Source of the DNA: a bacterium
Lineage (GTDB): Bacteria > UBA9089 > CG2-30-40-21 > SBAY01
Direction: 5' to 3'
Assembly (NCBI GenBank): GCA_040757115.1
Contig: JBFLYA010000014.1
Location: forward strand, 1 to 33,168
Length of the DNA stretch: 33,168 bases
Shown in pieces: positions 1,574 to 33,028 of the stretch. Below the pieces are notes generated by a model. That model had not been told where the DNA came from. It saw only the letters and a list, made by a program, of their open reading frames with translations, and searched no databases. Position numbers and translations under genes: made by a program. Position 1 is the stretch's first letter, and each line of letters begins with the position of its first letter.

Positions 1574-2230
1574 TCAAGAAATGATGATAACTATATTTGG
1601 CTCTGCAAAGGATACCTTTAATAGTTCTTCTGGAGAGCCTTTGATAATTCTTTCATCCACCGCCCCGAGTTTTTCACAAACATAGATAACCAGTGGGCAA
1701 TGAACAGTAAGCAGTGAGCACTTTAAAATTTCGGCTATCTTTGATGGTGTATTGTTCCTATCAGTCAGAACAGCTATCTTGTGGTGATGTTGAAGCAGGG
1801 ATGGAAGGTCGCTTATGGTGTATGGTTTGCCTTTCTTTGGGTCAGGCTCACCATGGAGGCTGAGCAAAAGGGCATCATCCCATGTCTCTTTTATCCTTGA
1901 AAAAGCAATCTGGATAGCGGATAAATCCGGAATTACCTCGATAGTATCCCTTCCGAGTTCTTCCATTGCCCTTCTCCCAATCCCAAAAAACATTGGGTCT
2001 CCAGAAGCAAGCACAGTTACATCACAATTCTGACACTTGATATAATCAAGCATCTCATCCATATTATTAATTACCCTGATATTATCCCTAATTGCTTCAA
2101 ACTCTTCGTATCCTTTGAATATCTCAAAGAGTCTATTTGTGGCAAGGATAACCTTTGAATTAAGAGTAATCTCCTTTGCCCTTTTATCAAAAGGTCTATA
2201 GCCAATGCCGATAAGATAGACTTTCTTCAT
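1574..2230 (-). CDS. cbiE: Precorrin-6Y C5-methyltransferase (CbiE-like tetrapyrrole methylase)
   Basis: VYLIGIG, VLASGDPMFFGIG, IQIAFSRIKETW, LSLHG, VCEKLG motifs; start set at 2230 (ATGA overlap with cobF stop). Confidence 0.85.
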   Translation of the reverse strand: MKKVYLIGIGYRPFDKRAKEITLNSKVILATNRLFEIFKGYEEFEAIRDNIRVINNMDEMLDYIKCQNCDVTVLASGDPMFFGIGRRAMEELGRDTIEVIPDLSAIQIAFSRIKETWDDALLLSLHGEPDPKKGKPYTISDLPSLLQHHHKIAVLTDRNNTPSKIAEILKCSLLTVHCPLVIYVCEKLGAVDERIIKGSPEELLKVSFAEPNIVIIIS

Positions 2231-2982
2231 TTTGCCTTCCTCAAAATATAAGTATCCATCATCCAACCCCGCCTCCTTTTTGCCGCTTTTCTTATCGTTT
2301 TAATCTTCTCAATGACTTCGTTTAACCTCCCTGAAACAAGTATCTCTTCCTTATTCCCCAGATAGCCGCCCCAATAGATATCAAGTTCCTCGTCCTTAAA
2401 ACGGTTAAAGGTAGCATAAGAATCTAATAAGACCGCAGTGTTATTAATCTCATTTGCTTGGTATTCCTTCAACCTTCTGCCGGTGGTAATAACAATATTT
2501 TCACCTATCCGATTGAGTGGGATTTTATGTTTTGCGGTTAGTATCTGAACAGAAGTTATCCCGGGGATGACCTCATACTCAAAATCTACAATCCCTTGTT
2601 TAAGAATATCTTGCAGTATCTCTAAATGACCATCATAGAGGCTCGGGTCACCCCAGACGAGAAATGCCCCAATCTGTCCATCTGCCATATTGTTAATCAA
2701 TTTTGTGATAATCTCTGCCTTTTGGACCCGCCACTTCTTAACCCCCTCTTCATATCTGCCGCTTTTTTTTCTCTTAGGAATCTCTGCGACCACAACTCGA
2801 TAACTTTTTTCATCAAGGTATCTTTTTAATATTTCCATCCTTGCTAAAGCAAGCTCATCCTCTTTTTCACCTTCTTTTTCAAGGATAAAGAAGACATCCA
2901 CTTTTTTCATTGTATCAATTGCCTGAATGGTCAGGTAATCAGGGTTACCTGGTCCAATACCGATAAGATATATTTTTTTCAT
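2227..2982 (-). CDS. cobF: Precorrin-6A synthase (deacetylating)
   Basis: IGIGPGNPDYLTIQA, GAFLVWGDPSLYD, VIPGITSVQ, ITTGRRL, IYWGGYLG, GWMMDTYILR; start placed at MKKIYL. Confidence 0.92.
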   Translation of the reverse strand: MKKIYLIGIGPGNPDYLTIQAIDTMKKVDVFFILEKEGEKEDELALARMEILKRYLDEKSYRVVVAEIPKRKKSGRYEEGVKKWRVQKAEIITKLINNMADGQIGAFLVWGDPSLYDGHLEILQDILKQGIVDFEYEVIPGITSVQILTAKHKIPLNRIGENIVITTGRRLKEYQANEINNTAVLLDSYATFNRFKDEELDIYWGGYLGNKEEILVSGRLNEVIEKIKTIRKAAKRRRGWMMDTYILRKAK

Positions 2983-3139
2983 CTTTTCGTTCCTTGTAAC
3001 TTTATTATATTTCACCACAGAGACGCAGAGAGCGCGGAGAGTAAGATTTCCTCTTCTAAACCTAAAACCATTCTTCTCATTCCATGTTTTAGCACATACT
3101 TTAAAATCCTAAATTCCAAATTCTACATTGGAATTTATT

Positions 3140-3560
3140 GGTGGTGTCTTAATCTAGCATAAAGGTTAAAATAGTGTATAGGGTTCTGCAAAATAGGATT
3201 TGAGGGAGACAACAAATAAATATCAAATATAAATATCAAAATGCAAAATTACAAATCAAATTTCAAAAAGGACGGGACGGTTCCTTTTATCGTTTTTCCT
3301 ATGATTTTTGTTGGAAATTGGAAATTAGAAATTGGGCTTTTGTCTCTCTCCCTAATTTCCAATTTCAATCCGCAATCTTTCAAACAAAAGTGAACCGTCC
3401 CAAAAGGATTTCTATTTTAACGCTGAAAGGAAAGAGATAATTTTACATTTTGATATGTAATTTTTATATTTGCTTTTTGCATTTTGCTCTTTGGAGGAAA
3501 TCCCTTTTGGACACCAAATCTGCATAGATTTCACTATTAGAGTTATTTTCAGACACCACC
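3140..3560 (+). mobile_element. MITE-like element, GGTGGTGTCT TIR, 8-bp TSD, copy 1
   Basis: GGTGGTGTCT...AGACACCACC flanked by AATTTATT on both sides; inverted copy at 22760-23262. Confidence 0.92.
3274..3401. mobile_element. Nested mini-element GGGACGGTTC...GAACCGTCCC
   Basis: 10-bp perfect TIR, flanks AAAAGGAC/AAAAGGAT, internal GGAAATT/AATTTCC 7-mer hairpin; absent from copy 2 of the host element. Confidence 0.8.
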
Positions 3561-3636
3561 AATTTATTTATCCACGGATTAATTCATTTATATTCATCTT
3601 CTCTGCGTTCTCTGTGCCTCTGCGGTAAATAGTTGT

Positions 3637-6600
3637 TTAAATTTTCCTTCTAAATCCCAGGGCAATCAACCCAATAAATATGAGGAAGCCAGCAATGAAT
3701 AAATACGGAATTGGGGCAGATGAGATACCGTCTGCCGTCTTCACTTCCTCCATCTCATACCCTTCAACCTGTGCCAGAGGTGCTATCTTTTTTGCCTTAT
3801 CACCAGGGGCTATAGTTTTTTGTTTGGTCTCTGACCTCTGACTTCTGTCCTCTGCCTTCTGCCTTCTGCCTTCTGCCCTCTGCCTTCTGCCCTCTGACAT
3901 CTGACTCTGTGCCTTCATAAACCCTTGCATCTGAACCTTTGAGCCAGGCACAGACATTAGCACCTGGCGGGTAAACTGTGTCAGCAAGGGATTGTTGCAG
4001 GTATGGTCACAGCAGGCAAGACCAACCTCCTGGACGCTCCGGGCATATTCCAGGGCAAGGGTTTCTATTATTTCTTTCTCTGGTTTCCAGTATTTCTTTC
4101 GCACACATTCAAGCATCCTGGCGACAACAGATTGATATGCCCACATATTTTTTGAACTGCGAAACATATCCTTTATTCCCAGTTCGTTTCTATCCAGGAT
4201 GTATGTTTCATACATCTCATTCCATTTAGCCGCATCTATCGCCTCTGGCACGGTTACCTGCCAACCCCAGAGGTATTCGACGACCTTATCTATAAATCGA
4301 GACCCGGCATAGCCCTCGTTCATCATTGCCTTAATCCATTCAGGGTTCAGATACCTTGCACGCATTTCTCGTCCCATAAATTTTTCAAGGGTTTCCTGTT
4401 TTGGTTGACGGGGATTGGACATATTGGTTACATAAACCTCTGGTGTTTTCCCATCAATGGAACGGATTGCCATTGCCGTGCCACCAAGATATTGGAAAAA
4501 GTCGTCATTATCAAGCGTGGCATAGACATTGCCCGAGATGCTGTGCACCGCTACTTTTGTTCCGGAAAGGGCATTCTTAAACAGCAGAAGGCTTATATCC
4601 TCATCCAGCTCCTCCGGTCTGTTACCTTGTTCTATCTTAGTTCCCCAGAACCCCTGTCCATAGAGATGGCTCATCCGCATCAGATAGACATCAGCTACCT
4701 GTTTTTCGTTATCCCAGGTGTTGGATAAAGGAATAAGATTAGATAAGTTTGTTCCGTAAGCACCAGAAGGCACGGTAAAAAGCCGCACCGATGCCAGCCG
4801 TTCTGCCATATCCTCAGAAATGCCTTTTTCCATAAGTATCTTCTTTGCCTTAAGGATATTTAGCCGAATGATGTTGTCCGTCTCATCCTGCTGCTTTGCC
4901 AGGGATACGGCTTTATCCAGCAAATCCATAAGGTTGGAGAACAGGTCACGGTAGAGCCCTGAGGGAACAATAGTCACATCAATTCTTGCCCGACCAAGCT
5001 CATACGCTGGTATTGGTTCAACCCCGACTACCTCCTTTCGCTCATTCCATTTTGGTTTTATGCCCATCAAATACATAATCTGCGATTCCATCACCCCTTC
5101 ATGACGGATGGTTTCTATCCCCCAAAGATTGAAGGTGAGCTTATCCGGATATTTGCCATGCCGATTTTTATACCCATCAATAAGTTCCTTTGCCAATTTC
5201 ACTCCCATCTCGTAGGTGGTTTTGCTGGGTATCCTCCTCGGGTCAAATGAATAGAAGTTCTTGCCTGTGGGCAGTGAATCAGGATTACGAATGGGGTCAT
5301 TGCCCTGACCAGCCGGGATATATCTGCCTGAAAGTGCGGCGATGAAAGAATCAAGCTCCCTTTGTGCTGATTGGATTATCCTCTGCTCGTAATCAGCGAG
5401 TCTCTGGGCAGAAGATTCTGTGCCCAATATTGCTTCAGCCGTAGTCCTGATGTATCTTTCCTCTGGGGCACGGCCAAAGGTATGCATACCAAAAGGTGTC
5501 TGCTTCTCCCCAATATCCTGGAGGTAATGCTCCACCTCCTCAACATCTTCTTCTGTTTTGACTTCGGCAATCTTAAGGTCAGTCAATAACCCAATCCGTC
5601 GGGCAAGGTTATTAATCTCTGCAAGTTTTGTTTCAGCCAAAGACAGACTTTTCTCCCTTGCCACATTGTAATCATTAATCAAGCCTGTTAGCTCTCTCAG
5701 TTCTTTATTCAGCCTCGCCTTATCAAATGGTGGGGTCAAATGGTCAATGATGACCGCCATTCCCCTTCGTTTTGCCTGTAACCCTTCGCCAACATCATCA
5801 ACGATATACGGATAGATATTTGGCAGATGCTGGATTAATGCCTCTGGTGGGTCGTTTTCGGTAAATCCAACCTCTTTGCCCGATAACCACTCATGGGTGC
5901 TGTGTTTGCCGATATGTGCCACTGCATCTGCCGAAAAAACCTTTTTGAGCCACAAATAAAAGGCAACATATTGGTGATGTGGACTAAGGGTAACACTGTG
6001 ATAGAGTTTTTTGACATCCTGCTCCCAACCGCGTGAGGGTTGCGGCATAAAAAGGATATTCCCATACTTCACCGCCGGGATAACAATGTATTTCTTTCCT
6101 CGGTCATCTGTCCATGTCATAATCTTGCTATCCTCTGGCCGTCCCCAGTCTCTGAGCATAGCCGTGGCCATCCCTTGCGGCAGTTCTTCAAACCATTGTT
6201 TGTAGAGGTTCATTGGAATAAGCACTGGTTTGCCTGTTCTCACCAACCTATCCAATTCCCCTGGCGCCCAATTGCCAATATTCCTGCCGTAAGTAAGAAT
6301 ATCATTGAAGAGCATCTCCTTCTTAATTTCCCCGGTCCCAAAATCATATCCTTCTATCTTCATTCGCTGTAATATCTCCCACAGGCTTTCTGGCAGGACA
6401 TTGAGATACGATGCCCCAACATTTTGCTTGCCCGGGGGATAGTTATAATAGATGATGGCAATCCTTTTGTCCCTGTTGGGTTTATCCTGCAAATTTATCC
6501 ATCCCTTTACACGGTCAATGAGTCGCTCAACCCGTTCAGGGATTGGTCGCTCTTCGATGTATTCAATTCCATTTTCAACCATCCTTTCCCTTGAAGCAAT

Positions 6601-7618: not shown

Positions 7619-7761
7619 AAAAATCGGGGTTCGGAACTCGGGACTCGGGGTTCGGGACTCGGGAATAAAAGAATCCCCGACCCCCGAAATCGGAACCCCG
7701 AGTGCCCGAATCCCGATTTTCATCATCCTTGTGAGCCGTAAGACTAAATGAGGGTCTCTCC
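7619..7761. repeat. CTCGGGA 7-mer hairpin plus one ATTTTCAT-type structured repeat
   Basis: ATTTTCATCATCCTTGTGAGCCGTAAGACTAAATGAGGGTCTCTCC (7716-7761) resembles the repeats at 15843-16506. Confidence 0.7.
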
Positions 7762-7887
7762 CTATTTTATCCGTGCTAATCCGTGTTAATATGTAGTAGG
7801 TGGTAGGTGGGATGTGGGATGTATGCTTTCCCACCTACCACCTTCCATCTACTACCTACCATCAGTGGCTGAATAGTTACTTTATTT

Positions 7888-13040: not shown

Positions 13041-13113
13041 ATTAACAAAAAGTCAAGGTCGCGGTTAAGAAACACAGCAAAAAAACTCTCTTTTTCCTTA
13101 ACCTATCTCTTTA

Positions 13114-13365
13114 TTATGCCTGCTGGTATGCTTCTAATACCTTGTCTTGCAGTGTTTGTCTAAATTCAGCGCTAATTGGATGGGCAATATCTTTTAATGC
13201 CCCATCTTTTGTCAGTCTATTAGGCATAGCGATAAACATTTCCTCTTGCCCCTGAATGACTTTAATGTTATGCACCACAAATACATCGTCAAATGTTACT
13301 GATACCCACGCCTTTAATTTCGAGTCATTCTCTATTCGTTTAACCCGAATGTTAGTAATTTCCAT
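13114..13365 (-). CDS. spoVG: SpoVG family regulator
   Basis: MEITNIRV, SVTFDDVFVVHNIKVI, FIAMP, DIAHPI. Confidence 0.95.
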   Translation of the reverse strand: MEITNIRVKRIENDSKLKAWVSVTFDDVFVVHNIKVIQGQEEMFIAMPNRLTKDGALKDIAHPISAEFRQTLQDKVLEAYQQA

Positions 13366-13383
13366 TGATTCACCTCTTTAAGA

Positions 13384-13549
13384 GTAGTCAGTAGTCAGTA
13401 GTTAGTAGTCAGTAAAGAATAGTGCTAAGTCAAAATTATTTTTTGTAAGATGCCTCAACCTTAACCTGATAGTACCCATGAATTCAATCTTGAAGAGGCA
13501 ATAGTTATTTCCCTTTACTGACTACTGACTACTGACTACTGTTTACTGT
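13384..13549. repeat. Inverted (GTAGTCA)n / (TGACTAC)n 7-mer arrays
   Basis: About four units per side enclosing ~100 bp between ispE and spoVG. Confidence 0.85.
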
Positions 13550-14392
13550 TTATTGCATATTTTTTGTCACAAAGATTATCTCATCACCCCCCTTTAATTT
13601 ATCATAGATGTTAACTGCCTCTAACTGTGTTTTAACAATTCCAAAAATACTTGACCCACTACCTGACATAAGCGCTCCCAGAGCACCGAGATTAATGAGT
13701 TTTTCTTTTAATTTTTTAATCACCGGATATTGCAGGAGCACAATTTCTTCTAATGTATTGTAAAGCAAATTTGAAATTTGTTCTATATTACCTTCTTTAA
13801 CGACATCTAATATTATTTTACTCTTTATTGGCTCATTTGTCAACATAAAATTTACATTTTCATATACTTTAGCCGTAGAAATTTTTATTTTAGGCCAGAT
13901 TATAATCACCCAGAATTGTGGTAAAGGAGGTAGAGGAGTAAGGGTTGTCCCAATTCCTGTTGCATAAGATAATCCTTGGTTAATGATAAAGAAAGGGACA
14001 TCTGCCCCCAATTTAGAAGATAGGAGAATCATCTCGGTTTGACTCAATCCCAATGACCACAATTTATTCAAGCCAATTAATGTTGTTCCTGCATCAGAAC
14101 TGCCTCCACCTAAACCCGCTCCAATCGGGATATTTTTTTCAATCTTTATTTTTACTCCTTTTTTGACCTCTAATTCTTGTTTTAAAAGATTAGCCGCTTT
14201 ATAGGCTAAGTTTTCTACACCAGGAACCTCTGGACATTCTAACTCAATTCCGTCATCCTTGCTTTCTAAAATGATGGTATCGTATAATTCGACTTTTTGC
14301 AAGATAGTTTCTAATTCATGGTAACCATCCTGTCTTTTAGCGATGACATTTAAAAATAAATTTATCTTTGCGGGGGCTAATAGTTTTATCAT
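13550..14392 (-). CDS. ispE: 4-diphosphocytidyl-2-C-methyl-D-erythritol kinase
   Basis: APAKINLFL, DGYHEL, IPIGAGLGGGSSDA, LGADVPFF, MSGSGS. Confidence 0.97.
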   Translation of the reverse strand: MIKLLAPAKINLFLNVIAKRQDGYHELETILQKVELYDTIILESKDDGIELECPEVPGVENLAYKAANLLKQELEVKKGVKIKIEKNIPIGAGLGGGSSDAGTTLIGLNKLWSLGLSQTEMILLSSKLGADVPFFIINQGLSYATGIGTTLTPLPPLPQFWVIIIWPKIKISTAKVYENVNFMLTNEPIKSKIILDVVKEGNIEQISNLLYNTLEEIVLLQYPVIKKLKEKLINLGALGALMSGSGSSIFGIVKTQLEAVNIYDKLKGGDEIIFVTKNMQ

Positions 14393-14393
14393 T

Positions 14394-15713
14394 TTATAAC
14401 ATATATCTTCTTAATCTAATATTTAAAAGTATGCCTAAAGAAACCATAGTGATACAGAGTGAAGAGCCACCATAACTTACCAGAGGTAAGGTTAGACCGG
14501 TTACCGGCATTATACTCAGAGATATACCAACATTCATAAAGACCTGGACAGCAATCATAGTAATTATCCCCGAGGCTAATAAACAACCAAAATTATCCCT
14601 TGAAGAAAAGGCAATATAAATACCGCGGTAGATAATAATTAAAAAGAGCAATAAAGTAGTAATTACCCCGATAAATCCTAATTCTTCCCCAATAACTGAG
14701 AAGATGAAATCAGATTGACGCTCAGGTAAAAAACCCAGTTGACTTTGTGTCCCTCGAAAAATTCCTTTACCCAGTAGTCTACCGGAGCCTATGGCGATTT
14801 TAGATTGAATAATATTATACCCGGCGCTTAAAGGGTCAATCCCGGGGTCAATAAATACCACAAGTCGTTTTCTTTGATAATCCTTTAAAAAACCATTGGC
14901 AACTAACGAAACAAGAAGGCTGATACTGATGATTCCTAGTATTAACCCAAATTTATTAAAGGTAATACTCCTTCTAAATAATTTTGTCATATAATATATG
15001 GTTACTGTAAGTCCCGATAGACAAAGTAAAGAGATTAAAGTATGTTTAAATGAACTAATAGACCGATATAGAAAATGGATAACAGGTATTTTATGAACTA
15101 TCTGAAGTTGTTCCCAGCTTAAAAATAGGGTAAAAACCATAATTAAAATACTTATCGAGGTCAATGAAACTAAATAGATTGGTTTAGCCCCTGTGATGTA
15201 AAACATAACTAATACTACCGGGAAAAAAACTAATGTAGTTCCCACATCAGGCTGCATCAGAATAAGAAATATCGGTAAGGCAACTAATCCTATTGGATAG
15301 ATAAATTCTTCAATCGAGGTTAATCCTTCTCGTTTAGTCGAAAGGTATTCAGCCAGGATAATAATCGTGGCTAATTTAGCGAATTCTGCGGGTTGAAATG
15401 AAAAAGGACCTATAACTACCCAACTTCTTGCACAACGAATCAAAGGACCTCCCACCAATACAAATATTAATAAAACTATCACCAGAATATACAATATTCG
15501 CGAGTATTTACCTAATAGTTGATAATCAAATGAAACGGCAGCGGTTAACCCCAAAAGTCCTATTCCAAACCACATTGTTTGTTTGAGCCATAAGAAATTA
15601 GAGTCTGAGGATTGAGTAGCACTGTAAATCATAAGTATCCCCAGACAGACAATTAAAATCACACAACTAAAGATAATGTAATCAAACCCTTTTTTTAGAC
15701 TAAAATTAAGCAT
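14394..15713 (-). CDS. rodA: Rod shape-determining SEDS protein RodA
   Basis: QPAEFAK, QPDVGT, GYNIIQSKIAIGSG, SDFIFSVIGEELG, LPLVSYGGSS; downstream of mrdA. Confidence 0.95.
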   Translation of the reverse strand: MLNFSLKKGFDYIIFSCVILIVCLGILMIYSATQSSDSNFLWLKQTMWFGIGLLGLTAAVSFDYQLLGKYSRILYILVIVLLIFVLVGGPLIRCARSWVVIGPFSFQPAEFAKLATIIILAEYLSTKREGLTSIEEFIYPIGLVALPIFLILMQPDVGTTLVFFPVVLVMFYITGAKPIYLVSLTSISILIMVFTLFLSWEQLQIVHKIPVIHFLYRSISSFKHTLISLLCLSGLTVTIYYMTKLFRRSITFNKFGLILGIISISLLVSLVANGFLKDYQRKRLVVFIDPGIDPLSAGYNIIQSKIAIGSGRLLGKGIFRGTQSQLGFLPERQSDFIFSVIGEELGFIGVITTLLLFLIIIYRGIYIAFSSRDNFGCLLASGIITMIAVQVFMNVGISLSIMPVTGLTLPLVSYGGSSLCITMVSLGILLNIRLRRYML

Positions 15714-15715
15714 AG

Positions 15716-16506
15716 TTCTCCTGAAACTCGGGACTCGGGACTCGGGACTCGGGACTCGGGATTCGGGACTCGGGATTCGGGAAGAAAGAAACTCTCAGCA
15801 ATTCCCCCTTAATAAAGGGGGTTAGGGGGTTGTCCTTCTCCCATTTTCATTGCCCTTTGTGAGCCTTGGCTCATGTCCGTTTCCCCTGAAAATGTCTGTA
15901 AGTTATTGTAATTGCTTGACTTAGAAAACCACATTTTCATCGTCATTTGTGAGTCGCAGACTCATGACCGTTTCCCCTGAAAATAGGAAGTAGAAAGTAG
16001 AGAGTAGAAAGTAGAAAGTAAAGAAAACATCACTCCTCCCGCTTATCTCCTTACCTCCCACCTTCTATCTCCTACCACTATTTCCCCTGAAAATCGGGAC
16101 TCGGGACTCGGGATTCGGGAAGAAAGAAACTCTCATCAATTCTCCCTTAATAAAGGGGGTTAGGGGGTTGTCCTTCTCCCATTTTCATTGCCCTTTGTGA
16201 GCCTTGGCTCATGTCCGTTTCCCCTGAAAATAAGGAAGTAGAAAGTAGAGAGTAGAAAGTAGAAAGTAAGGAAAGACAAGCCTCTTCTTTCTCTCTCTAC
16301 CCTCTACTATTTTCATCGTCATTTGTGAGTCGCAGACTCATGACCGTTTCCCCTGAAAATAGGAAGTAGAAAGTAGAGAGTAGGAAGTAGAAAGTAAAGA
16401 AAAGATCACTCCTCACGCTTATCTCCTTACCTCCCACCTTCTATCTCCTATCTACTATTTTCATCTTCGTTTGTGCCCAGTCCCTGTGGGCATGAGCGTT
16501 TCTCCT
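15716..16506. repeat. Array of ~51-52 bp structured repeats (ATTTTCAT...CCTGAAAAT) separated by modular spacers
   Basis: Repeats at 15843-15893, 15933-15984, 16080-16094 (collapsed), 16181-16231, 16309-16360, 16457-16506 (divergent). Confidence 0.92.
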
Positions 16507-16578
16507 TTTTAAAGAAGGTTGAGTCACGGAAGGAGAAGTAATTTTTCTCTGCCGATTTCTTTCTTAACCCTTAACCGC

Positions 16579-18360
16579 TCAACTTTCTTTAAATATCGAC
16601 CAATCCATTTGTTCTAAAATTCTTCTTGCGACTGGAACTGCTTCTATACCTCCTTTACCTCCATGTTCGACAAGAACGGCGATAACTACTTTCGGGTCAT
16701 CCACCGGGGCAAAGCAAACAAAGAGGGCATGGTCTTCCCCGGTAGGATTTTGCACCGTTCCTGTTTTACCACCTATTCTTAAATAAGGTAAATAAGCCTT
16801 TTGACCTGTTCCTTTAGCCACGACATCCTCTAATCCTTTGAATACTACTTTTTGAGTCTGATTTGATAAAGGAATAATCCTTTTTACCCAGGGATTAAAT
16901 ATCTTTATATTTCCAGAAGAATCTATCATTTGTTTAGCTATTCTTGGTGTAATGATCTTGCCACCATTTACAATTGCACTTAAAGCACAGGCCAATTGTA
17001 GTGGTGTGCTTAAAATATATCCCTGACCGATACTCAAATTAACTGTTTCTCCCCAATACCATGATTCTTTAAATTTTTCTTCTTTCCATCTTCGAGTAGG
17101 AACTAATCCACTTGCTTCAGCAGGCAAATCAATGCCTGTTTTCTCTCCTAATCCTACTTGCTGGGCAAATTTTGAGATTTTATTTATCCCCAATTTAATC
17201 CCAACTTGATAGAAAAAGATATTACAGGAATGAGCAAGTGCATCCATAACATCTACAGAGCCATGTTTTTCTTTTTGGAAACAAATAAACCTTTTATTCC
17301 CTAACCAGTATATTCCCCCACAAGAATATCTTGTGCCCTCGTTTATAATTTCATCTTCTAATGCCGCGGTCGCCACGATAATTTTAAATACGGACCCGGG
17401 GGAATATTGTGCTTGAATTACCCGATTAAGTAATGGATATTGTTTATCAGAAAATATCTGTTTAGCCTGAGTAGAAGTCATATGCCCTAAGAACATATTT
17501 GGGTCAAAACCTGGCTTGCTAACTATAGATAATATTTCACCATTATTAGGATTCATCACGACTACTGCCCCGGATTTCTCACCAAGAGCCTCATTGGCTA
17601 TTTCTTGTAACCGCTTATCAATGGTCAAAATTAGATTATTACCAGGGATTGGTTCCATATTACCTAAAACCTGTAATTGTCTTCCACGAACATCGACTTC
17701 AATTTGTTTCCCACCATTTTTGCCTCTTAAAGAAAGGTCATAATATCCTTCAATCCCTGATTTCCCAATTAAATCACCATATTTATATCCATCATTGTAT
17801 TTATGGATAAGTTCTTCTTTACTAATTTCACCAATATATCCTAAGAGATGACTACAAATGGGACCATAGGTATAATATCGTTTTTGATTAACTTGAATCA
17901 TAATACCTGGTAGTTCGGTTGTTCGTTCAGCGACTTTAGTCAGGATTTCACGGTCTACATCAGCAACGATTACCGTGGGTTCAAAAGGCTTATTTTTTTT
18001 CGCCTGAATCTTCTCCATCACCTCTTTTAGATTAATTTCTACTATTTCTTTTAACTTGATTAGTGTTTGTTCTATTTCATTTTTGTTCAAGCCAAGTTGA
18101 ATGATGGCAATGTCAAATGAAGGTATATCTTGGGCTAATATCTTCCCATTGCAGTCATAAATCATTCCTCTTGAAGCAGTAATTGGTATTAACCGAATAC
18201 GGTTATTTTCCGAGACCTTTTGATAATAATTTCCTTTTATTATCTGTAAATAGATTGCTTTAACAATTAATATGGCAAAAGCGATTATAATAATTGTAGT
18301 TAATCGAACAAGTCTTTGCCGTAATCTTTCTAATTCAGATTCAGTCGGTTCAATATGCAT
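16579..18360 (-). CDS. mrdA: Penicillin-binding protein 2
   Basis: SVFK (SxxK), SCN (SxN), KTGT motifs; N-terminal TM; follows mreBCD. Confidence 0.96.
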   Translation of the reverse strand: MHIEPTESELERLRQRLVRLTTIIIIAFAILIVKAIYLQIIKGNYYQKVSENNRIRLIPITASRGMIYDCNGKILAQDIPSFDIAIIQLGLNKNEIEQTLIKLKEIVEINLKEVMEKIQAKKNKPFEPTVIVADVDREILTKVAERTTELPGIMIQVNQKRYYTYGPICSHLLGYIGEISKEELIHKYNDGYKYGDLIGKSGIEGYYDLSLRGKNGGKQIEVDVRGRQLQVLGNMEPIPGNNLILTIDKRLQEIANEALGEKSGAVVVMNPNNGEILSIVSKPGFDPNMFLGHMTSTQAKQIFSDKQYPLLNRVIQAQYSPGSVFKIIVATAALEDEIINEGTRYSCGGIYWLGNKRFICFQKEKHGSVDVMDALAHSCNIFFYQVGIKLGINKISKFAQQVGLGEKTGIDLPAEASGLVPTRRWKEEKFKESWYWGETVNLSIGQGYILSTPLQLACALSAIVNGGKIITPRIAKQMIDSSGNIKIFNPWVKRIIPLSNQTQKVVFKGLEDVVAKGTGQKAYLPYLRIGGKTGTVQNPTGEDHALFVCFAPVDDPKVVIAVLVEHGGKGGIEAVPVARRILEQMDWSIFKES

Positions 18361-27023: not shown

Positions 27024-27259
27024 GTAACCGTTCAGGTGGTGTAACAAAAGGAGATGTGGAGATTAAGGAGATAGGGAGATATTATAAAAAAATTGAAATT
27101 AATAGAAACTAATAGAAATTTATGGAAATTTGTTGTTTTCCACAATCAATTTCTACCTATTTCTATAAATTTCAATCTATTTCTATTATCTTATCTCCAT
27201 ATCACTCTTATCTCCTTATCCCCTTTCTTACACTTTTGATATATAGCCTGAACGGTTAC
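27024..27259. mobile_element. GTAAC-family MITE-like element, copy 2
   Basis: GTAACCGTTCAGG...CCTGAACGGTTAC, near-identical to 898-1134. Confidence 0.9.
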
Positions 27260-27483: not shown

Positions 27484-30400
27484 TTATGCTTTTAGAAGAT
27501 TTAGGCACTTCTGATACCAGGGATGCTCTCTGGGAAGGGTCTTCTCAAAGATGCTTAATGCCAGATTAAATAACTTAATCGCCTCCTCCTTCTTCCCTGT
27601 ATCACGATAAGCAATTCCTAAGTTCATCTGGCATAAGGCATAATCTGGATGGTTCTGCATCTGGTTATCTTCATATATCCTTATTGCCTTCTGATATGCC
27701 TCTATTGCCCGCTCATAGTCTAATTTGTTCCGATAAGCCTCCCCTAAGTTCATCTGGCATAAGGCATAGTCAGGATGGTTCTGCATCCTGTTCTGCTCAT
27801 ATATCCTTATTGCCTTCTGATATGCCTCTATTGCCCGCTCATAGTCTAATTTGTTCTGATAAGCCTCCCCTAAGTTCATCTGGCATAAGGCATAGTCTGG
27901 ATGGTTCTGCATCTGGTTATCTTCATATATCCTTATTGCCATCTTAAATGCCTCTATTGCCCGCTCATAGTCTAATTTGGCATCATAAGCAAGTCCTAAG
28001 TTCATCTGGCAGCCGGCATATTCAGGATGGTTCTGCATCTGGTTGGCAGAATAAATCTTAATCGCCTCTTGATATGCCTCAATTGCCCGCTCATAGTCTA
28101 ATTTCTCCCAATAAGCAGTCCCTAAGTTCACCTGGCATTTGGCATAGTCTGGATGGTTCTGCATCTGGTTATCTCCATATATCCTTATTGCCTTCTGATA
28201 CGCCTCTATTGCCCAGTCATAGTTTAATTTGCCAGCATAAGCATTCCCTAAGCTCATCTGGCATAAGGCATAGAATGGATGGTTCTGCATCTGGTTTGCA
28301 GAATAAATCTTAATCGCCTCTTGAAATGCCTCAATTGCCCGGTCATAGTCTAATTTGCCATCATAAGCAATCCCTAAGTTCATCTGGCATAAGGCATAGT
28401 CTGGATGGTTCTGCATCTGGTTATCTTCATATATCCTTATTGCCATCTTAAATGCCTCTATTGCCCGCTCATAGTCTAATTCCTTAGCATAAGCAATCCC
28501 CAGTCTCTGCAGTTCATCAGGAGATATTGGCTCTTGAGGTAATTCTTTCTTTTCTTTTTCTTCCTTAAAAGGCAATATTTGTTTTATAATCTCTGTGATA
28601 ATTTCTCTTACCTCTTTGGTTTGGCGATTGATAATGTCCTCATTGGGTGTTTCTAAATACCCGGCAATTATCCTTAAGGGAAAGAGAAAGGCTACTTTAT
28701 CCTTTATCTCAGATACCTCAAGGGTATCAATGAAATATAGGACACTCTGAGGTCTATTTTCTTTTAAAATCTCAATAAGAAGCTGAACAAGGAGACGCTC
28801 AAAGCCTACCTCCTCTTCCTTGATTTTATTCTTATCCAGGATAATTCTGATTTTAATGAGTTTATTTATATATTCTTTCATCCTTTTAAGATTCTCTTTA
28901 AGGGCTAAATCAAGGGTTGCATCCACATAGAATCTAAGTAATAGTGCCAGGCTTGATTTAATCTCTAATCCCTCTTTTTCTAAAAGTGCCAGGTCAGTAA
29001 TCTTTTCCAGGCAGGTTAGTGTCTCTTCATACCGACCAAGTAAATTCAATACTGACACTTTATTTATCAAGGATTGAATATCTTGCGGGTCTTTCTCTAT
29101 CGCTTTATTAAAGCAATTAAGGGCTTGTGCATAATCACCAAACCTGAGAAATGCCTTTCCCCTACCAGCCCAGAGGGAGGGAATATCTGGATATTGGAAG
29201 ACTGCCTGGTTATAATATTCTAATGCATCTTTGTCCCAGGCTATCTTTAATAGCCTTTCTCCCTTATCTACTATCTCTTTTATCTTCCTCTTTTTTACCT
29301 CTTTGAGATAGCTCAGGTGCACCTCAATCAAGTTTCTCTTTTGAAAAGAATCCACATTTTTACATTCCTCTTCCATATTTTCTATCTCTAAATCAAGTTC
29401 TGGGAGTGAATACCAGAGGCTGATGAACCTTAAAAGCCATTCAAACCTCTTTCTCTGAGTAGTAGATGAGCGCATCTGATACCATATTCTAAATAACTGT
29501 TCTACGACATCATAATAGAATGTGCCTCTTTTTTTCCCTTTTTGCACAGGTTTAAGGTATCCATCATCCACTAATACCTTGATCACAGCGGTTGTCTTAT
29601 TGAGGGGGAACCTCAAGAGTTTTGCAATGTATGAAGGAGAGATACCTTCTTCCATATCAGTAATATCTATCTTAGAAAAGCCTGCCATAATCTGGCGTTT
29701 TTGGGGAGATAATGCCTCCATCTTTGCCTTAAAATATGGGGTCATTTCACTGATAAGTTTATCAAAGGCATCTTCTACCGCGGGGAGTTTACCCGCAGTA
29801 AGTATCTGGAATAGAAAGAGGAGTAAGCGCGGATTCCCACCTGTCAAATGATAGATAGACTTAATCCTCTGTTCATAGGCAGCAAAAGAGGTAAGTATTT
29901 CCTGGTGCTCAATAGCGGTTGCCCAATTTTTAATAAAGATAAGACCTTGCTCAACAGGTAGCTCAACTAAATTTATCCTTTGAAAAAGGTGGTATAAGGG
30001 AGCCTTATAATCGATGACCTCTTTGAATACAGTAGCGGCACTACCAATAAGTAGCAGGATACCTTCATCCATAAGGAATGTCCGTAGCCTCTTTAAGGAT
30101 AAGGAATCCATAAACCCTGAACTAAGGATCTGGTCAATATTATCTACCAAAAGTAGTATCTTCCTTTTATTATTAGTGGTGAACCTTTCAAGAGAGGCGA
30201 TAATCTCATCCACTAACTTGCGGTCATCCTTTTCATCCTTAATTCTTGCTTCAATCCCATTCATCCAATCAGGAAGGCTACCTAACTCATCTCTTATCTC
30301 CTCAACGAGCCGTTCAAAGAAACCCCGTAAATTAACCACAGTATACTCCTCTTCTGCAAATTGGAGAGGGAGCCATTGTTGCGGAGACTCTTCCTTTATC

Positions 30401-32955: not shown

Positions 32956-33028
32956 GTAAGCGTTCAGGTGGTGTAACAAAAGGAGATGTGGAGATTAAGG
33001 AGATAGGGAGATATTATTAAAAAAATTG
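32956..33028. mobile_element. Truncated GTAAG-family element, copy 3
   Basis: Matches the first ~73 bp of the 898 element, then is interrupted by a GTAACTATTCACC end at 33029. Confidence 0.85.

Follow-up and report, generated by a model that had tools for sequence, protein, structure and literature searches.

The minus-strand genes rodA and mrdA, the second of which encodes penicillin-binding protein 2 (PBP2), are separated in the bacterium studied here by a gap that is filled for the most part by an array of repeats and variable inserts (15716-16506), and the question raised by this locus is what kind of element built it. Positions refer to the window, meaning the whole stretch of 33,168 nucleotides that was analysed (contig JBFLYA010000014.1 of assembly GCA_040757115.1). 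The original prediction, made from the letters of the window, described a repeat-spacer array distinct from CRISPR and took it for a structured single-stranded DNA (ssDNA) or RNA recombination site that assembles cassettes. Our findings point to a more specific answer: the array is probably a stack of non-autonomous units that consist of the ends of an IS110-type insertion sequence (IS) and were inserted site-specifically at the sequence AGGAGAA and next to one another. This is not a new kind of system, as both IS110 satellites resembling miniature transposable elements with inverted repeats (MITEs) and tandem IS110 repeat units have already been published.

The repeat itself has the form that had been proposed for it, with two alternating variants and a divergent terminal one. 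Repeat A (51 nt; 15843-15893 and 16181-16231) and repeat B (52 nt; 15933-15984 and 16309-16360) are each present in two identical copies and repeat C occupies 16457-16506; a collapsed repeat, also anticipated, is present at 16080-16094. We call the conserved repeat the core and the variable body, or 'spacer', next to it the module. A core profile built from the five window copies was run with nhmmer (E<=0.01) against the contigs of the source genome, G000 (4.32 Mb, 36.8% G+C, in 462 contigs that are labelled C plus a number below). The core, 51-56 nt in length, belongs to a dispersed family with 215 matches, 139 of them near full length, in 151 clusters: 105 are single, 34 double, seven triple, four quadruple and one, the array in the window, quintuple. 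Adjacent cores always stand head-to-tail, with no opposite-strand neighbour pair, and the arrays are to that extent cassette-like, as had been suggested. The 3' motif of the core, with up to two mismatches, occurs 114 times in G000 and its reversed control not once. These repeats interrupt the assembly, for 603 of its 924 contig ends lie in repeated 13-mers and 55 have a core within 300 nt; contigs break at the repeats, so that the numbers given for copies and for the size of stacks are minimum values. A figure of 44.5% for the G000 bases in repeated 13-mers was rejected because chance k-mers inflate it.

What is copied can be read from the company that the cores keep. The stem class of a core and the module on its 5' side (window orientation) share 1.34 bits of mutual information, compared with 0.50 bits on permutation and with none of 1000 permutations as high (n=185), while on the 3' side the values are 0.76 and 0.70 bits and 144 of 1000 permutations were as high (n=127). 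The stem class is tied to the module on one side only and the copied unit is therefore a module plus a repeat, not a repeat plus a spacer. Unit boundaries have the general form ...YCCT|GAAAAT..., in the window ...TTCTCCT|GAAAAT..., and they divide the array into six units of 91-165 nt, none of which carries an open reading frame (ORF). The spacers are reused modules, as the original prediction had it (four that were tested have 66, 12, 6 and 6 copies genome-wide), but they are not separate entities, the bodies being inherited together with the repeat on one side. The inverted 7-nt pair TGAAAAT/ATTTTCA is internal to the unit, where it closes the body hairpin; the tips of the unit read AGGRGAAAC... 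and ...ATTTTC on the gene strand and are not inverse complements, so there are no terminal inverted repeats.

All six units lie on the minus strand. Unit 1 (15723..15887, 165 nt) is made up of CTCGGGA heptamers, a CCCCCTT/AAGGGGG hairpin module and core A, and 34 cores of the AGCC class sit behind a module of this type; unit 4 (16089..16225, 137 nt) is of the same type, also with core A, and belongs to a repeat family with 98% identity over 138 nt. Unit 2 (15888..15978, 91 nt) combines the '39-mer' module with core B and represents a minimal derivative of a left end plus a right end. Its 39-mer (15894-15932) had been thought unique; it is the body of a 91-nt unit with five other copies (at least 80% coverage, 94-97% identity) and is homologous to an IS110 right end. 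Unit 3 (15979..16088, 110 nt) has a long GTAGAAA-type heptamer hairpin and the collapsed core ATTTCCCCT, a form that is found at other loci too, unit 5 (16226..16354, 129 nt) has a second GTAGAAA-type hairpin module and core B, and unit 6 (16355..16506, 152 nt) has a long GTAGAAA hairpin and core C. Heptamer arrays run through 15726-15782, 15979-16020, 16094-16120, 16236-16268, 16355-16396 and 16420-16458.

The halves of the core form a near-invariant frame, ATTTTCAT...TTTGTG and CATG...GTTTCYCCTGAAAAT, and the stem between them takes many complementary forms. Stems were parsed in the 190 matches that start at model position 2 or earlier; five proved unparsable and the remainder gave 75 distinct hairpins whose pairs, counted once per distinct hairpin, are 384 Watson-Crick, 40 G.T, 7 A.C and 7 other. 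An alignment of 41 G000 cores was made up of window copy C and of 40 cores that represent, one apiece, the most frequent of 51 distinct full-length hairpins. In it 97.0% of the cells are paired compared with 72.9% after shuffling, a value that 0 of 500 shuffles reach, and there are two-sided changes in two of the four outer pairs; scoring was confined to these four since MAFFT had not aligned the inner pairs correctly in forms with a long stem. A joint alignment of 39 metagenome cores and five from G000 has 96.5% of cells paired (65.9% shuffled), four of six pairs that covary and a covariation score of 0.661, compared with 0.125 and again reached by 0 of 500 shuffles. The copies descend from one another and such controls therefore overstate their independence. 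The covariation of the hairpin is genuine, and the three inner hairpins of the window are as they were first written down; any role for the hairpin is something that we can only infer.

Array starts were sought among 488 [CT]CCTGAAAA sites at least 80 nt from a contig end, which were sorted by the repeated or unique DNA on each side into 56 array starts, 116 internal junctions, 245 sites without a downstream repeat (mostly chance occurrences) and 71 in between. At 36 of the 56 starts the array abuts a Shine-Dalgarno (SD) sequence and a start codon on the opposite strand that belongs to an ORF of 50 amino acids (aa) or more; the distance to the start codon ranges from 3 to 21 nt and is in most cases 10-12 nt. 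Several of the other 20 starts are at contig ends. The same relationship to a start codon holds for 1533 of the 6602 YCTCCT sites genome-wide (23%), a control that includes non-intergenic DNA, so the SD enrichment of the array starts is partly positional. The host-side consensus is T, T, C and T at -7 to -4, with which 50, 49, 50 and 49 of the 56 starts agree; the search pattern allowed only C or T at -4 and prescribed -3 to -1. About 88% of the starts have TTCTCCT on the host side, and the sequence beyond it shows no conservation. At the other end a stack closes with an element-borne GTTTCTCCT that hardly varies, and unrelated A/T-rich DNA comes next (18 ends in one comparison, 10 complete arrays in another). 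The two boundary copies are not alike in three of the 10 complete arrays (C186, C105 and C189); this difference, together with the constancy of the right copy, led us to reject a target-duplication model.

The rodA stack conforms to this pattern. Its host-side boundary (15716..15722, minus strand) is TTCTCCT, the complement of the rodA SD sequence AGGAGAA, with the complement of the start codon, CAT, at 15711-15713, while unit 6 closes with an element-borne TTCTCCT (16500-16506) that gives way to unique DNA. The stack is thus enclosed by CAT-AG-TTCTCCT and TTCTCCT-TTTTAAAG and, on the gene strand, lies immediately 5' of the rodA AGGAGAA. The flank to the right of unit 6, TTTTAAAGAAGG, is the same in G001, the sister species and the only other species of the genus, as is the left flank on the rodA side.

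The link to IS110 elements comes from other organisms. A strict full-core pattern had no match in metagenome contigs, while the left half of the core with the hairpin and CATG (one match per locus) was found in at least 120. Among the 120 matches listed, which include evident chance matches with long unpaired inserts, 85 have all six outer stem pairs, 106 have a GTTTC-type tail and 80 have both, the last group comprising 39 distinct hairpins. The motif reads TGAAAC-nnn-CATG-hairpin-CACAAAGGAGGATGAAAAT on the opposite strand, and an ORF of the IS110 type (DEDD) follows 75-110 nt downstream in 18 of the 53 loci whose flank extends for 330 nt or more; the ORF at locus L203 matches PF01548 with 108.4 bits over profile positions 1-152 of 155. 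The other 35 loci lead into hairpin bodies, 24 of them closed by ATTTTYRRR within 300 nt, which is the G000 unit plan in other organisms. On the IS-bearing contigs conservation begins at TGAAAC and the upstream flanks vary from contig to contig.

The closest plasmid-borne relatives of the transposase are annotated as members of the IS110 family, with up to 55% identity, and one plasmid of Alicyclobacillus dauci (NZ_CP104065.1) holds several 100%-identical copies of a 1575-bp IS110 element. Three of these copies have unrelated left flanks, and all start about 12 nt before CATG and continue through a 7-bp hairpin to ...GGATGAAAAT; the shared start amid unrelated flanks makes the motif the extreme left end of that IS, the copies of which end in ...ATTTTCAGGATAG. 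At about 56563-59805 of the plasmid (loci L286/L290) IS, IS and a 130-bp right-end fragment follow one another directly head-to-tail. Another copy there (~96875-98301) has an internal deletion in its left end. In G000 one copy of the cognate transposase subgroup, 65% identical, survives on C90 (PF01548, 92.7 bits; PF02371, 50.7 bits) in a decayed state, with the N-terminal 24 profile positions missing and a stop inside the Transposase_20 domain. About 340 nt of non-coding DNA follow it, and the tip of this right end matches the gene-strand end of the window 39-mer at 23 of 26 nt; it abuts a further unit and then the SD sequence of a gene. Thus the left-end motif and the right-end tip of the units both lead to IS110 elements.

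The stacks turn over rapidly. Searches with a covariance model gave at least 150 core matches each in G000 and G001, 26, 9, 2 and 1 in the other genera of the family, and 0-2 weak matches in the remaining genomes of a 25-genome phylum set. The other genera keep the left half and the hairpin, with a tail of GTTTCAT... instead of GTTTCTCCT. A comparison of the mrdA-rodA gap across relatives, as the original prediction had proposed, found two units with other bodies between the same flanks in G001, 47 nt with a small heptamer hairpin in the relative G003, and other heptamer hairpins in the relatives G004 and G005. The unit sets of the two sister species differ at all five orthologous sites, the flanks of which are 93-99% identical. 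At two of the five the 3' half of the terminal core is common and everything to its left is different, which indicates that exchange also takes place inside cores, and at one site the gene's own SD region seems to have been replaced by a core-derived one. G000 and G001 have genomes of 4.3-4.7 Mb, compared with 2.4-2.9 Mb in the other four family genomes, which represent sister genera. One apparent empty site in G001 (L109) was discarded because the absent item is a different MITE and not a unit. That MITE (274 nt; C50, 1813-2086) has inverted ends of the GGACGCAGAT type and a TTAA site, and it also occurs as a 'module' inside some stacks.

On the strand of rodA and mrdA a unit begins with an IS left end of about 50 nt (AGGRGAAAC, 3 nt, CATG, the covarying hairpin of 6-8 bp and a purine-rich stretch to GATGAAAAT). 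A hairpin body that varies between units and is frequently composed of heptamers then stands where an IS has its transposase gene, and the right-end tip ATTTTC closes the unit. These observations suggest the following scheme. A DEDD recombinase of the IS110 type, guided by a bridge RNA, may mobilise the units in trans, probably by way of circular intermediates, and RNA-guided integration would take place at the 7 nt common to the donor junction ATTTTC-AGGRGAAAC and the target AGGAGAA. In intergenic DNA AGGAGAA would usually be an SD site, and each unit would re-create it at its own end. The seven shared nucleotides explain both the location at SD sites and the stacking: with AGGAGAA re-created at the end of a unit, new units would land beside old ones and stacks would grow. 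Parts of the scheme have precedents in IS110 biology, and Durrant et al. (2024; PMC11208160) describe elements that excise to double-stranded circles and recombine with the target around a short core (2 nt in IS621), a promoter that is rebuilt across the junction of right and left ends, a non-coding end encoding an RNA in which two guide loops accompany a 5' stem-loop, and a 22-bp donor that suffices when the bridge RNA is supplied in trans.

Several observations weigh against this scheme. The shared sequence has 7 nt (AGGAGAA) compared with the 2-nt core of IS621, and the exact crossover cannot be placed. The metagenome IS copies are known here without their right ends, and in A. dauci the second copy of the tandem lacks the first 33 nt of the left end, the hairpin segment, so that the mobile boundary may lie after the hairpin in some events. 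An intact cognate transposase was not found in G000 or the 24 other genomes of the phylum (E<=1e-20), a negative on which the state of the assembly bears, multi-copy IS elements often being left unassembled in a genome of 462 contigs. Four IS110-type, 10 tyrosine-recombinase and seven Y1 matches were found in G000, none of them beside a core and the nearest at 939 nt, and a search of eight IS-bearing loci with Rfam (E<=1) revealed no bridge RNA or anything else relevant. Finally, the G.T excess of the stems (40 G.T to 7 A.C among the distinct hairpins) lies on the plus strand, antisense to the transposase, and does not fit a simple role as the 5' stem-loop of a sense RNA; counted by eye as independent events, the ratio is nearer 12 to 10.

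The enzymes of G000 were considered individually. The three IS110-type genes other than that on C90 have no core on their contigs. The PF00589 match at 939 nt, the nearest of the ten, is a mere fragment at a contig end. None of the seven Y1 (PF01797) matches has a core within 4 kb, and no core has a gene resembling a REP-associated tyrosine transposase (RAYT; REP, repetitive extragenic palindromic) within that distance. The TnpB domain PF07282 has no match in G000, and the canonical TnpA of C119 has flanks unrelated to the cores. The cognate transposase is not found in viral contigs, and the DNA of the array has no match among plasmids and phages. The absence of a cognate enzyme from the window is as first reported; of the recombinases that might have stood beside full-length units, IS110 was the right one to name, through the metagenomes and A. 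dauci, and none stands beside a core in G000. An IS200/IS605 'peel-and-paste' model was abandoned on finding the IS110 link. The repeat is a structured site related to recombination, as had been proposed, but nothing shows an ssDNA mechanism. By its own terms the original prediction would be refuted if the repeat were simply the joined ends of a known IS-derived MITE with no covariation; MITE-like IS ends are essentially what we found, and the covariation is genuine.

The reverse relationship, in which the cores are host palindromes similar to REP sequences or bacterial interspersed mosaic elements (BIMEs) and serve as the preferred target of an IS110 element, with modules and IS copies inserted between GAAAAT and ATTTTC, is unlikely in our judgement, and it survives better than the other alternatives. 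IS110 elements often target REP sequences (PMC11208160; PMC12288879), as IS621, ISPpu9 and ISPpu10 do, cores vastly outnumber transposase genes, IS body and hairpin modules occupy the same place after GATGAAAAT, and in the A. dauci tandem it is the body that recurs while the hairpin segment of 33 nt does not. Against this reading, a search for an empty TGAAAAT-ATTTTCA junction (gap 0-12 nt) found none save one unrelated match. The class of the core is co-inherited with the adjacent module within one genome, the complete identity of the three A. dauci copies starts about 12 nt before the hairpin amid unrelated flanks, and the metagenome IS loci are conserved from TGAAAC onwards with differing upstream flanks. 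Cores never form inverted pairs, and there is no RAYT-like gene within 4 kb of one.

An assembly artefact, in which a wrong path through the repeat graph produced the six-unit order and the true locus has fewer or reordered units, is a somewhat smaller risk. The units recur elsewhere in the genome at 98-100% identity and the array contains internal repeats of 138 and 142 nt that are 98% alike. Contig ends concentrate in repeated 13-mers. Public contigs that come in from the left reach 15754 at most and those on the right begin at 16439; none bridges that interval, which leaves the order of the units inside the array unverified. On the other hand, depth is that of single-copy DNA (~283-293) where the unique flanks pass into the array on either side, the sister genome, assembled independently, also has units enclosed by these flanks, and multi-unit arrays are assembled within contigs at many loci, also in G001, G003 and foreign metagenomes.

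The remaining alternative gives function the first place, and the evidence on strands bears on it. Cores fold better on the plus strand in 103 of 126 cases, all 41 copies of the long GTAGAAA module strongly favour folding on the gene strand (-40.1 compared with -22.0 kcal/mol), the other modules are about evenly divided between the strands, and the isolated core folds weakly as DNA (-4.5 to -9.4 kcal/mol). The signals of stems and bodies conflict as to which strand's structure matters. Rfam at the gathering threshold found only a transfer RNA in the window and no known family in the array; promoter-like sites are absent from the array on either strand, which leaves a junction-promoter reading without support. 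Among public sequencing runs, none of RNA is listed as containing the locus. A selected leader or intercistronic element of structured RNA or DNA with mobility as a secondary matter, whether a stabiliser of mRNA, a translational decoy mimicking SD and AUG, a terminator or insulator, or a set of junction promoters, might be read from arrays that lie exactly upstream of SD sequences and preserve them, from the AGGAGA, 7 nt and ATG that every core presents on the gene strand, from the strand preference of the GTAGAAA module, from seven terminator-like matches on the plus strand where 1.6 are expected and from the one gene whose SD region was apparently swapped, but it is very improbable given that content is unrelated at five of five orthologous sites in the sister species, so that no site-specific function is conserved, that the other genera of the family lack the SD-like tail, that the frame of the mini-ORF differs (by eye) between core types, that the strand signals of cores (plus) and modules (minus) conflict and that the array has no promoter-like match.

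The stacking of IS110-end units at SD sites could be carried a step further. An SD-seeking, RNA-guided IS110 lineage that is widespread among uncultured bacteria may have spawned modular mini-donors, each with a fixed left end of 50 nt, a swappable hairpin body and a right tip of 6 nt, the stacks of which would act as evolvable promoter or leader cassettes that retune some 150 genes. The boundary between units would then copy the circle junction of the parent IS, where the IS110 promoter assembles, and turnover between sister species would outpace point mutation. We regard this extension as speculative and doubtful.

IS110-end units dispersed without a transposase and stacked at SD sites were not described in the full-text literature that we searched, which was incomplete. 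IS110 and IS621 elements resemble the units in several ways: a DEDD transposase (next to the motif in autonomous relatives), no terminal inverted repeats, a structured non-coding end that begins with a stem-loop and short donors that can be moved in trans. Insertion at a specific site around a sequence shared by donor and target may be a further resemblance. The units differ in having neither a transposase nor an identified bridge RNA, in sharing the 7-nt AGGAGAA where IS621 has its 2-nt core, in targeting SD sequences rather than REP sequences and in reaching more than 200 copies per genome. MITEPpu9 of Pseudomonas putida, a satellite of ISPpu9, carries IS-end boxes, gives rise to minicircles and in some strains is duplicated in tandem (Pares-Guillen et al. 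2025; PMC12288879). Like our units it is transposase-less, has boxes similar to IS110 ends and lies head-to-tail behind the IS or alone; it has eight copies, a single small-RNA gene and insertions in REP sequences, whereas the units number hundreds, have a dozen or more unrelated hairpin bodies and form stacks at SD sites that reach a depth of at least six, in a genome where no intact resident IS was found. Non-coding repeat units that pile up in tandem beside IS110 transposases are reported in the accessible part of a preprint (Hu et al. 2026; 10.64898/2026.08.14.744561); they share with ours the local insertion and tandem accumulation of partial IS110 modules, the retention of donor-end matches and a lack of target immunity, but they adjoin a transposase module where ours occupy about 150 dispersed loci without one.

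Other repeats are alike in appearance. A CRISPR array also alternates a conserved, partly palindromic repeat regularly with variable inserts, but here inserts recur across the genome, variation in the repeat is compensatory, 151 loci are involved and no cas genes adjoin them, which bears out the view that this is not a CRISPR system. PATEs derived from IS200/IS605 differ in that our units have no TnpA/TnpB partner with matching subterminal hairpins. Integron attC arrays consist of head-to-tail cassettes and have a structured site with inverse-complement outer boxes and a crossover inside the last shared box, while here there are no cassette ORFs, no integrase or attI nearby and an isolated core that folds weakly. 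BIMEs are mosaic clusters of palindromic units and conserved linkers and in this they resemble the stacks. With REP sequences, BIMEs and the paired REP elements called REPINs, including the REPIN-RAYT systems, the units share an extragenic location, the capacity to form hairpins and a high copy number (PMC3116915, as far as its available text goes). REPINs are inverted pairs, as described in that text, and the units are strictly direct repeats with no GTAG/CGTC tag and no adjoining RAYT. In cyanobacteria, small dispersed hairpin repeats embedded in heptamer arrays (the STRR/SDR sequences treated by Elhai in 2008) are said to occur. In Beggiatoaceae and cyanobacteria, start codons are closely preceded by direct repeats of the heptamer TAACTGA (MacGregor 2015; PMC4679880). 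Like ours, these arrays are concentrated between the upstream region and the start codon; the difference is that our heptamers are the arms of hairpin bodies inside IS110-end units and that the host is not a cyanobacterium. A cyanobacterial origin, which the heptamers had suggested, was ruled out by the closest public matches of RodA, which are unclassified metagenome-assembled genomes (62-63%) followed by Elusimicrobia and Spirochaetota (40-48%).

If the stacks are what we propose, they would represent a natural and highly amplified family of IS110 donors that have no transposase, carry interchangeable cargo and insert at a target which is also the ribosome-binding site. They would offer hundreds of natural donor/target junctions and a covarying left-end hairpin to the study of bridge recombinases, and they would show that such systems can reshape intergenic DNA genome-wide, in line with the difference in size between these two genomes and those of their relatives. 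For annotation, the stacks explain the shattering of these assemblies, and they serve as a warning that 'repeat-spacer' patterns like those of CRISPR can be pile-ups of IS ends.

The neighbourhood of the array is otherwise that of the two genes it separates. On the minus strand rodA (14394..15713; FtsW/RodA/SpoVE family, PF01098, 319.9 bits) lies directly downstream and mrdA (16579..18360; transpeptidase domain PF00905, 225.5 bits, and PBP dimer domain PF03717, 164.7 bits) lies upstream, with mreD and mreC further upstream on the same strand. An inverted repeat at 16508..16593 (16-nt arms, 94% complementary) overlaps the mrdA stop codon; it is native to the gap and its conservation in G001 places it outside the array. 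Elsewhere in the window a decayed unit of the same family (7620..7776, plus strand) shows a CGGGAC-type heptamer hairpin and a degenerate core; it was read by eye and is not among the nhmmer matches. A heptamer hairpin of the form (AGTAGTC)n ... (GACTACT)n (13383-13548) lies directly upstream of the SD sequence of a minus-strand ORF (13114-13365) and has no core and no GAAAAT/ATTTTC ends.

Some minor observations concern other elements. A 73-aa open frame at 697-918 has a weak Y1_Tnp match (PF01797, 24.6 bits) and looks like a transposase fragment unrelated to the array. A 126-nt tandem repeat at 27606-28500 has seven copies with 82-85% matches (a period of 252 nt was also scored). A block of short tandem repeats (AAGGAGATAGGGAGATT, AATAGAAATT and others) occurs three times in the window, at 922-1100, 27048-27225 and 32980-33013, and is probably another dispersed element. 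In the rest of G000, a repeat containing GATTGAAATCCCCTGAAAAC has seven copies, on C6, C13, C230, C255, C311, C384 and C462, several of them at contig ends. The TnpA domain of C119 (IS200/IS605 type, 151.8 bits) ends a stop-free frame of 1120 aa at 1804-5166, which has the look of a fusion to a large gene or an insertion into one, and a family of palindromic repeats of about 130 nt occurs near it and upstream of the IS110-type gene on C311. On C430 a CRISPR-like array (~13090-13280 and 13980-14010) with a 37-nt repeat and spacers of ~35-42 nt stands beside a 156-aa ORF similar to Y1_Tnp, and its repeat is unrelated to the core.

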